NCBI GenBank assembly: GCA_023421955.1
Contig: JAEZSE010000018.1
Coordinates: 7,337-71,336 of the forward strand
Length of the DNA: 64,000 nucleotides
Source of the DNA: Bacillota bacterium
GTDB taxonomy: Bacteria; Bacillota; Clostridia; Christensenellales; UMGS416
Direction of reading: 5' to 3'
Below, piece by piece: positions 25,236-25,718 of this stretch (position 1 is the first letter of the stretch; the number at the start of each line of letters is the position of its first letter). The notes under the pieces are model-generated. The model worked only from the letters and a program-made list of their open reading frames with translations, was not told the DNA's origin and ran no database searches. A program made the translations under genes and the position numbers.

Positions 25236-25376
25236 TTAGCAGCAGCGGTTCTGCTCCTGCTTCTCTTTGGCGGGTATGTTGTCCTGAGTGTTGGAGCTGC
25301 ATCCGCAGCCGGCCGCGGCGGGTTTGTTCTCTACCTGGCAGCAATTGGACGTCTCCTTGGGCTTCTTTCCGAACAT
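25236..25376 (-). CDS. small Cys-rich protein (46 aa) ending in CC
   Basis: AAGGAGG RBS 8 nt upstream. MFGKKPKETSNCCQVENKPAAAGCGCSSNTQDNIPAKEKQEQNRCC. Confidence 0.45.
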   Translation of the reverse strand: MFGKKPKETSNCCQVENKPAAAGCGCSSNTQDNIPAKEKQEQNRCC

Positions 25377-25407
25377 GGTATAACCTCCTTTCCTTCTGAG
25401 AAACTGT

Positions 25408-25536
25408 TTAGCAGCAGTACTGTTCCTTGTATTCCCTGCACTCCAGCTTGCAAAAGTGATCCTTCTCCTGATCCTGTTCCACCATGGGCATCGCTTTAAG
25501 GGCAACCTCCAACAATACGTCAAACATAGTCTTCAT
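25408..25536 (-). CDS. small Cys-rich protein (42 aa) ending in CC
   Basis: MKTMFDVLLEVALKAMPMVEQDQEKDHFCKLECREYKEQYCC. Shares the CK(V/L)EC motif with the upstream small TM ORF. Confidence 0.4.
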   Translation of the reverse strand: MKTMFDVLLEVALKAMPMVEQDQEKDHFCKLECREYKEQYCC

Positions 25537-25586
25537 TTCGCTCATCCTTTCCTTCATCCTATCGCGGGCTTCTGTTCCAGCCTGGT

Positions 25587-25718
25587 TCAAGAGAGCCCAT
25601 GGTGGCGGGCTTGATACCCGATGCATTCCACCTTGCAGTATTCCTGCTCCACCGTATTGTTTTCCGGCAAAGTCGAGAGCACCACCAGCACAAACAGTAC
25701 AACAAAGATCATCAACAT
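25587..25718 (-). CDS. small single-TM peptide (43 aa) with a CKVEC motif
   Basis: GGAG 8 nt upstream. MLMIFVVLFVLVVLSTLPENNTVEQEYCKVECIGYQARHHGLS. Not in the supplied ORF track because it is under 60 aa. Confidence 0.35.
   Translation of the reverse strand: MLMIFVVLFVLVVLSTLPENNTVEQEYCKVECIGYQARHHGLS

Follow-up and report, generated by a model that had tools for sequence, protein, structure and literature searches.

Three short open reading frames (ORFs), here termed s1, s2 and s3, are found on the minus strand of a 64,000-nt stretch of contig JAEZSE010000018.1 (assembly GCA_023421955.1, a Bacillota bacterium), between the gene of an ArsP_1-family permease and an arsR gene. The whole stretch is referred to as the window. 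Are these ORFs genes, and which function would such small Cys-containing peptides have next to genes of arsenic resistance? The comparisons described below indicate that s1 to s3 are genuine genes at the distal end of a five-gene operon; on balance, they are best read as coding for thiol ligands or chaperones of trivalent (organo)arsenicals or other thiophilic species. The peptides are probably Cys-thiolate accessory proteins of metalloid resistance, and two of them, s1 and s2, represent a previously undescribed family. Sequence comparison speaks clearly for the reality of the genes, the paralogy of s1 and s2, their membership in one family and its arsenic-type context.

Position and start sites of the reading frames

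The three ORFs and the adjoining permease gene are arranged as follows.

25738-26844, minus strand: ArsP_1-family permease, 368 aa; PF03773 135.9 bits (cut-off 32.3)
25718..25587, minus strand: s1, 43 aa, MLMIFVVLFVLVVLSTLPENNTVEQEYCKVECIGYQARHHGLS; AGGAG 8 nt upstream of the start
25557..25408, minus strand: s2, 42-49 aa, stop codon 25410..25408; C-terminus ...DHFCKLECREYKEQYCC
25376..25236, minus strand: s3, 46 aa, MFGKKPKETSNCCQVENKPAAAGCGCSSNTQDNIPAKEKQEQNRCC; AGGAGG 7 nt upstream of the start

The genes are co-directional and tightly packed, with spacings of 19-31 nt between permease, s1, s2 and s3. An initial annotation of the window had reported three minus-strand ORFs, each with a Shine-Dalgarno (SD) sequence, between permease and arsR; they were recovered as described from a reading of the minus strand and from the ORF list, and the two flanking genes, the permease at 25738-26844 and arsR at 24721-25086, were confirmed as well. 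Its remark that the ORFs are probably unannotated was wrong. Public gene callers already predict all three, with calls of 43, 60 and 46 aa in a public assembly of identical sequence, and the proteins are recorded without a name from NCBI, ENA and Logan. A look-up of the permease by exact sequence gave no match, in contrast to that of s1.

For s1, an alternative in-frame ATG at 25724 would give 45 aa and is located merely 2 nt from the SD sequence. Start candidates of s2 are 25557 (49 aa), 25545 (45 aa) and 25536 (42 aa; the start chosen in the initial annotation), and GGAAAGGA is found about 8 nt upstream of the last of these.

The predicted product of s1 is a single-pass membrane peptide in which the membrane helix is combined with the motif EYCKVEC; Cys28 and Cys32 form a C-x3-C pair, and the peptide represents a two-Cys subtype. 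In an AlphaFold2 model (mean predicted local distance difference test score 73), helix 2-16 is followed by a break at STLP and by a helix 21-39, on which Cys28 and Cys32 are placed one turn apart. The N-terminal helix of s2 is amphipathic instead of hydrophobic; this peptide carries four Cys, the motif HFCKLEC and a C-terminal vicinal pair (YCC). s3 is hydrophilic, probably disordered, and contains six Cys in the arrangement CC-x10-GCGC...CC-stop.

A family of small proteins including s1 and s2

A BLASTP comparison of s1 with s2 gave a 42-residue alignment with an E-value of 2e-5. When 8,836 small ORFs were searched with a profile from which all sequences of the window lineage had been left out, s1 (E 1.8e-12) and s2 (E 1.9e-6) were detected, and the next match was at E 0.55. 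As judged from these alignments, the likeness of s1 and s2 exceeds chance, and the two are paralogues and members of one small-protein family, to which s3 does not belong. The proposal in the initial annotation that s1 and s2 are real duplicated genes thus held, by paralogy as well as by the independent profile, and can be extended to a family.

The family was sampled further with a profile of small ORFs from permease loci that have a hydrophobic start and an [FY]C-x2-EC motif; out of 5.8 billion, 16 clusters were matched. In an exhaustive HMMER search, 50 of 1.84 billion representatives matched at E<=1e-3, including nine at E<=1e-10; nearly all family representatives have a length of 38-72 aa. 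A word-indexed search with a 53-sequence alignment returned fewer matches than one with 11 sequences, and no informative names. Members share an N-terminal membrane helix, a [DE][FY]C-x2-EC motif 8-12 residues after the helix, a basic tail and, often, a terminal CC. A hydrophobic 17-mer with a mean Kyte-Doolittle value of at least 1.6 was present in 53 of 55 members (3.08 in s1); the two below this threshold, s2 (1.35) and P0035 (0.81), both have an amphipathic N-terminal helix. The motif C-x2-E-C, or its variant C-x2-E-Y-x2-C, was found in all 55, and the Cys and Glu of the motif are invariant across the 53-sequence alignment. CC at or near the C-terminus occurs in 21/55 members; s2 has it, s1 does not. 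Tails of the CC type reach a net charge of up to +6. The C-terminus of the family is predicted to be cytoplasmic because the tails of most members are positively charged.

None of the Pfam and NCBIfam models matched the family, and Pfam at E<=1 gave no family for s1, s2 or s3. A tblastn search of one family member against 72,556 plasmids was without a match. As far as sampled, the family appears to be rare, uncurated and confined to arsenic-type detoxification operons of Bacillota-like anaerobes.

Genomic context of the family

Eight family members were chosen blind to context. Their neighbourhoods read as follows.

P0033: MarR - ArsM-like methyltransferase - peptide - C_GCAxxG_C_C - methyltransferase - GNAT
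P0022: MarR - GNAT - peptide - ArsR - CoA-disulfide-reductase-like/rhodanese - ArsR - Acr3 - ArsD - ArsA
P0035: ArsR - ArsP_1 - peptide
P0031: LMWP phosphatase / MarR - methyltransferase - C_GCAxxG_C_C - peptide
P0042: MarR - peptide
P0057: ArsA-ArsD-ArsR, divergent from MarR - methyltransferase - GNAT - peptide - methyltransferase
P0028: peptide - MarR - methyltransferase - GNAT; close by are an ArsP_1 permease and a 56-aa gene resembling s3
P0016 (Clostridium pasteurianum): integrase/transposase region

Seven of the eight are thus housed in arsenic-type operons (MarR_ars, ArsM, ArsN1, ArsR, ArsP_1, Acr3, ArsD or ArsA). In addition, relatives of the permease were scanned with one genome per species, which resulted in 79 loci (designated by L numbers); in six further loci a family peptide is placed in an ars-type operon, immediately behind ArsR2 and permease. 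In L021 and L028 the peptide is located elsewhere in the locus, not adjoining the permease. The layout of L028, peptide-MarR-methyltransferase-GNAT, is that of P0028; its methyltransferase scored 315.7 bits with the arsenite methyltransferase model NF008823 (cut-off 263), and its GNAT protein 231.9 bits with ArsN1 family A (cut-off 170). The MarR proteins of the family loci share 51-82% identity with each other; they have a vicinal Cys pair around residue 31, and CC is found at the C-terminus. A vicinal Cys pair plus C-terminal Cys defines the As(III)/Sb(III)-responsive MarR_ars regulators (bioRxiv 10.1101/2021.08.12.456183). From the neighbourhoods of the sampled members and of L028 it follows that the family accompanies two types of arsenic-responsive regulators together with genes for arsenic methylation, arsinothricin resistance and efflux. 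The association of thiol peptides with an ars permease, as suggested initially, is borne out by this recurrent ArsR-ArsP_1, MarR_ars, ArsM, ArsN1, Acr3 and ArsD/ArsA context.

The position of the peptides bears on a different function, that of accessory or regulatory permease subunits. s1, and perhaps s2, might tune the stability or substrate range of the permease, as AcrZ does on AcrB or KdpF on KdpABC. A family peptide follows the permease directly in the window, L001, L002, L006, L008, L073 and L086 and precedes it directly in L024, and size and single-helix architecture are those of known small membrane-protein regulators (review PMC12648545). However, five of the eight blind-sampled members are encoded in MarR_ars-ArsM/ArsN1 operons without an adjoining transporter, one of these operons consisting just of MarR and peptide; s2-type members have no membrane helix, and the invariant residues are Cys and Glu rather than a helix face. 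A subunit function is therefore considered unlikely, albeit the most plausible of the alternatives.

Several further observations were made in these loci. A C_GCAxxG_C_C protein recurs beside a small peptide in MarR_ars-ArsM operons (L082, 4175-5258; L087, 2206-2409); it is often paired with a DVU_1556-like methyltransferase and constitutes another uncharacterised Cys-rich component. L002 has an s2 homologue and neither s1 nor s3, and harbours a thioredoxin-like gene of the ArsE/Thioredoxin_3 type (MNIEVLGSGCAKCLKL…; 6726-6971) between arsR1 and acr3. Two gene calls of L083, of 41 aa (6720-6845) and 35 aa (7725-7832), were considered as further peptides and rejected as Acr3 fragments: they flank a 169-aa SBF fragment, the first resembles the start of Acr3 (…FLDRFLTVWIFL…), and acr3 is apparently broken by frameshifts.

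s3 and analogous Cys-rich peptides

With a profile that included s3, ten clusters were obtained; s3 itself appeared at E 2.4e-7 because it was part of the profile seed. A profile of analogous peptides without the window and L001 did not detect s3 at E<=10, and s3 is therefore treated as lineage-restricted, that is, as confined by present comparison to the window and L001. The central, Cys-rich loop of its own permease is matched by s3 at a composition-corrected E-value of 6e-5, the s3 pattern CC-x10-GCGC corresponding to CC-x8-GCGCG of the permease. No other part of the operon evolves as fast as s3 and this loop.

Hydrophilic peptides analogous to s3, which contain 8-15 Cys and often have an MFxFKK start and a CC end, are encoded directly beside ArsP_1 permeases in L003, L028, L033, L035 and L074, and one or two genes away from the permease in L021, L090 and L091. 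The likeness of s3 to such "MFxFKK...CECCG..." peptides (P0059-P0063, P0066-P0068) concerns size, composition, the MF...KK start, the position at the permease and the terminal CC. This supports the view that a free Cys-rich peptide beside an ArsP_1 permease is a recurring theme; homology of s3 to these peptides is unproven, and the theme has no specific tie to arsenic.

In three loci (L033, 23-206; L035, 23-178; L091, 819-1397) a gene for an extracytoplasmic function (ECF) sigma factor precedes the ArsP_1 permease and the Cys-rich peptide. The C-terminus of the sigma factor is itself Cys-rich in L033 and L035 (…HPICCCCCNKK). These loci suggest that the same pair of permease and peptide can be placed under a different, non-ArsR control.

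Small tandem Cys-rich peptides could also be precursors of ribosomally synthesized and post-translationally modified peptides (RiPPs). Pfam and NCBIfam scans of s1 to s3 and seven analogous peptides were blank save for a faint match of s3 to the ACGX-repeat model TIGR04341 (E 0.21); its 12.3 bits are far under the cut-off of 28. Genes for radical-SAM, YcaO, lanthipeptide or protease/export functions were absent from the window neighbourhood and from the related loci, and a RiPP origin is regarded as extremely improbable.

Conservation and selection

The closest relative of the locus is L001, with a permease of 91% identity. It keeps s1, s2 and s3 with identical length, start and stop. The spacer between s2 and s3 is just 52% identical, yet the SD sequence before s3 is intact. 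In a sliding-window comparison, no 120-nt stretch of the operon was better conserved than s2 (95-96% identity); the identity of s3 is 79%. The ratio of nonsynonymous to synonymous substitution rates (dN/dS) was 0.22 for s2 and 0.37 for s3, as compared to 0.04-0.13 for arsR2, permease, acr3 and arsC. All counts for the small genes are low, with 13 (s1), 8 (s2) and 29 (s3) substitutions. Since their dN/dS values are above those of the neighbours, s1 to s3 are far less constrained than the neighbouring genes. All six Cys codons of s3 are retained in L001 although 29/141 nt are substituted, for which a chance probability of about 0.03 was estimated. For the s3-like pair of L021 and L090, a dN/dS of 0.20 was obtained.

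The dS values of s1 and s2 against L001 (0.12-0.15) are well under those of the flanking genes (0.37-0.70). An overlapping RNA element was considered as the reason and dropped, as other parts of the locus contain 120-nt stretches of equal conservation. An Rfam scan of 24900-26000 gave no RNA family at E<=1, so that a known riboswitch or small RNA is not the cause of the conservation.

Permease and transcription units

The permease contains a PFCACG motif and, at about residues 160-210, the Cys-rich central loop SCGCSG...SCCAAAEEGTGCGCG...GCGCG, which is its least conserved part against L001 (77-79% identity). It remained below every NCBIfam equivalog cut-off (SO_0444 118/300, SaoE 86/325, arsenic_eff 22.5/100 bits), the best partial match being the SO_0444 Cu/Zn efflux family. 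Chen et al. reportedly showed in 2015 that ArsP needs a conserved Cys pair in a membrane helix for the transport of MAs(III).

The signals and regulators around the operon are the following.

27258..27286, minus strand: sigma-70-like promoter match TTTACA-17-TATAAT (11/12) upstream of arsR2, the putative start of the operon
26923..27228, minus strand: arsR2, ArsR/SmtB metalloregulator, 101 aa, with a vicinal Cys pair (GTCCDRIE)
25149..25217, minus strand: hairpin AGCCCCGUCCCC...GGGGAGGGGCU followed by UUCAUAUUUUUU, the putative intrinsic terminator that would close arsR2-permease-s1-s2-s3
25117..25145, minus strand: promoter match TTGACA-17-TATACT (11/12) of the neighbouring unit arsR1-acr3-arsC-hgcA-hgcB (25086..21439)
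24721-25086, minus strand: arsR1, ArsR-type; downstream of it are acr3, LMWP-type arsC, hgcA and hgcB

ArsR2 was assigned by HTH_5 (E 3.6e-10) and NF033788 (59.9 bits, cut-off 55). In most of the 79 loci the gene that immediately precedes the permease is a homologue of arsR2 (57-96% identity), and the two genes are by their order a conserved two-gene cassette. The hairpin had been missed by a simple terminator scan because of its long loop; the folded 101-nt segment 25140-25240 has a minimum free energy of -33.3 kcal/mol and a z-score of -2.07. Two transcription units, arsR2-permease-s1-s2-s3 and arsR1-acr3-arsC-hgcA-hgcB, are predicted, since each is preceded by an 11/12 promoter match and a hairpin with U-run is found between them. 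A sigma-70-like scan gave no promoter or antisense promoter match inside the peptide region.

This last result, together with the tight co-directional packing of the genes in operons, argues against unrelated small membrane peptides without a metal(loid) role, such as type I toxins of the Hok kind or hitch-hiking ORFs. A length of about 45 aa and a membrane helix with a Cys-containing C-terminal extension do recall the Hok/Gef toxins (PMC12648545), and the C. pasteurianum member is located in a mobile-element region. In Pfam, however, no toxin was matched at E<=1, and the ars context recurs across differing gene orders. Such peptides are held to be a very improbable explanation.

Other features adjoin these units. 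The ars/hgc block is flanked by eight tRNA genes (Leu, Tyr, Thr, Phe, Asp, Met, Glu, Pro; 19889-20602) and by tRNA-Arg (29744-29820), and may be a genomic island; many of the ORFs listed at 19945-20670 are merely those tRNA genes. Divergently from arsR2, the plus strand codes for an aldo-keto reductase (27336-28517) whose C-terminus carries a ferredoxin-like Cys cluster. This pairing was also found in L086, there together with a MerR regulator.

Relation to hgcAB

The initial annotation had linked the peptides to Hg(II) and to HgcAB, and this link was not supported. If the peptides were Hg(II) or methylmercury partners of HgcAB, they would deliver mercury to the methylation proteins or remove it. 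In favour of such a partnership, hgcAB is found 2.3 kb downstream of the peptides in the window, the C-terminus of HgcB reads ...CGCDDGDCC, and 6 of the 79 loci have hgcA no more than 4 kb away from the ArsR2-permease cassette, in several arrangements, which is high for a rare gene. A family peptide occurs in four hgcA lineages (window, L001, L002, L008). Against it, the hairpin with U-run and the neighbours' own 11/12 promoter separate the peptides from hgcAB as a different unit. Among 16 loci of other genomes that carry a family member, hgcA was found in three, and the remaining 13 were without hgcA in the fetched sequence; the hgcA loci L005, L047 and L055 have the permease and no such peptide. 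Most family members are found with ArsM, ArsN1 or MarR_ars. A role as partners of HgcAB is thus improbable.

In a wider form of this idea, arsR2-permease-s1-s2-s3 would be the missing thiol relay and exporter for the substrate or product of HgcAB, with peptides and permease loop capturing Hg(II) or methylmercury at the membrane for export. This is a speculative and slightly less probable proposal; if true, it would explain why the cassette is found beside hgcAB in at least six lineages with differing gene orders. We know of no described route of methylmercury export in methylators.

Genes for hgcAB were also observed inside or next to ars-type operons. In the window, arsR1-acr3-arsC-hgcA-hgcB occupies 21439-25086 (minus strand), and L055 (5865-8397) has the order permease-MarR_ars-hgcA-acr3-hgcB. 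Divergent from arsR2-permease, hgcA-hgcB is preceded by a MarR_ars-like regulator in L008 (1487-3439) and by an ArsR-type regulator in L005 (679-3440). An arsenic link of hgcAB has been proposed (bioRxiv 10.1101/2022.10.17.512643), and an hgcAB embedded in ars genes fits this proposal. The locus adds examples of hgcAB in ars operons, which are relevant to the proposal that arsenic resistance and mercury methylation are linked in evolution.

Proposed function

For the function as thiol ligands, the following sequence of events is proposed. Upon release of repression by ArsR2, s1 to s3 would be produced together with the permease. A membrane-anchored s1 would present its C-x3-C helix at the cytoplasmic face, s2 would act as a peripheral or soluble paralogue with four Cys, and s3 as a soluble mimic of the permease loop. 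At the membrane or close to it, the reduced thiols of the peptides may bind As(III), methylarsenite or Sb(III) and perhaps also soft metals. The peptides could thereby buffer the toxic species, or hand the ligand to the permease or to ArsM, as ArsD does for ArsA, though with a much smaller scaffold that is unrelated to ArsD. As(III) is bound by vicinal or closely spaced Cys in ArsR, ArsD, ArsA and ArsM; sites of this type accept trivalent arsenicals, antimonite and soft metals. We infer topology, ligand binding and the identity of the ligand from the features and contexts described.

Several points weigh against this interpretation. In the single close pair available, with L001, s1 has a dN/dS of 0.96 and no signal of purifying selection, and an excess of third-position substitutions was seen in none of s1, s2 and s3. 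The relatives of s3 are just L001 and the loop of its own permease, as the failed search with the profile of its analogues indicates, and composition might account for the resemblance to the loop. Within 5 kb of the member from the cultured C. pasteurianum (P0016), ars genes are absent. Because the permease does not reach any curated substrate-specific model, Cu, Zn or Cd could be the ligand instead of arsenic. s1 has two Cys with an acidic linker, and oligomers or partners would be required for the proposed topology and for a three-thiol As(III) site. The claims on ligand binding and expression are drawn from comparative genomics.

Some of these points would agree with the ORFs being partly non-functional, in that s3, and possibly s1, would be decaying or non-coding and the shared motif a result of duplicated DNA. 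The selection data of s1, the missing third-position excess, the lack of an independently detectable homologue of s3 and its place among the fastest-evolving stretches of the locus are compatible with this. On the other side, s1 is the window's top-scoring member of a family that is defined by distant sequences, start, stop, length and SD of all three ORFs are kept in L001 together with the six s3 Cys codons, and analogous Cys-rich peptides are encoded at or near ArsP_1 permeases in the eight loci named above. A loss of function of this kind is accordingly given little credence. None of the alternative explanations fits the spread of contexts as well as a function of the peptides as thiol ligands.

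If this function is confirmed, the conserved membrane-anchored C-x3-C/CC peptide would be a new and very small class of thiol ligand or chaperone in metalloid detoxification. The family would then be a concrete target for work on how cells shield their thiols from trivalent and methylated arsenicals that are on the way to permease or methyltransferase. Their short length allows the peptides to be synthesized chemically, which makes the binding hypothesis directly testable.

Comparison with known systems

The genes of arsenic-resistance operons have been catalogued for decades. No peptide component of ars operons of about 45 residues was found in Pfam, in NCBIfam or among the papers obtained by literature searches on small Cys peptides of these operons. 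Like s1 to s3, ArsD (PF06953) is encoded in ars operons, and arsD shares genomic islands with some family members. Cys12, Cys13 and Cys18 of ArsD bind As(III), which is passed to the efflux system. The soluble ArsD has a thioredoxin fold, a length of about 120 aa and the ArsA ATPase as partner, whereas s1 to s3 are peptides of 42-49 aa without a Pfam match at E<=1; s1 is predicted to be anchored in the membrane, and any partner of the peptides would be ArsM or a secondary permease.

The FeoB-associated Cys-rich membrane protein (PF12669) of anaerobic Firmicutes has about 40-60 aa, one N-terminal helix and a short Cys-rich tail, and is encoded beside a metal transporter. This architecture is shared by the family, without a Pfam or NCBIfam match at E<=1. 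The FeoB-associated protein has a Gly/Cys cluster and feoB as partner; the family has C-x2-EC plus terminal CC and ars partners.

Bacterial metallothioneins (SmtA/BmtA, PF02069; MymT) are, like s3 and its analogues, short and Cys-dense; peptides of the s3 type are hydrophilic, contain 6-15 Cys and are placed under a metalloregulator, which agrees with the thiolate-sink concept of metallothioneins. PF02069 did not match s3 or six analogous peptides. Unlike metallothioneins, s3 has no His or zinc-finger-like core, and it resembles the loop of its own permease.

MerT, MerF, MerE and MerC together with MerP are small membrane proteins that relay a thiophilic metal across or along the membrane via Cys pairs, some of them vicinal. 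They differ by two to four helices with Cys inside the helices, by the import of Hg(II) for MerA and by their location in mer operons. The Mer models of Pfam did not match s1 to s3, and mer genes (merA, merR, merB) were absent among the ORFs within 5 kb.

Subunits of the AcrZ/KdpF type are single-helix proteins of 29-49 aa that are encoded with a transporter and bind to it (PMC12648545). They act by helix packing and have no conserved Cys; the family, in contrast, conserves just the Cys/Glu motif and is often found without an adjoining transporter. ArsE (thioredoxin-like, PF13192) is the usual third gene of ArsR-ArsP operons and thus occupies the same slot as the family peptide, as in operon C of Pseudodesulfovibrio ND132, where it follows ArsR-ArsP (bioRxiv 10.1101/2022.10.17.512643). 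ArsE is also Cys-based, but it is a folded redox protein of about 80 aa with CxxC and is unrelated in sequence to the peptides.

The closest analogues are therefore ArsD in function, the FeoB-associated Cys-rich membrane protein in architecture and, for s3, the bacterial metallothioneins; none of them is related in sequence.

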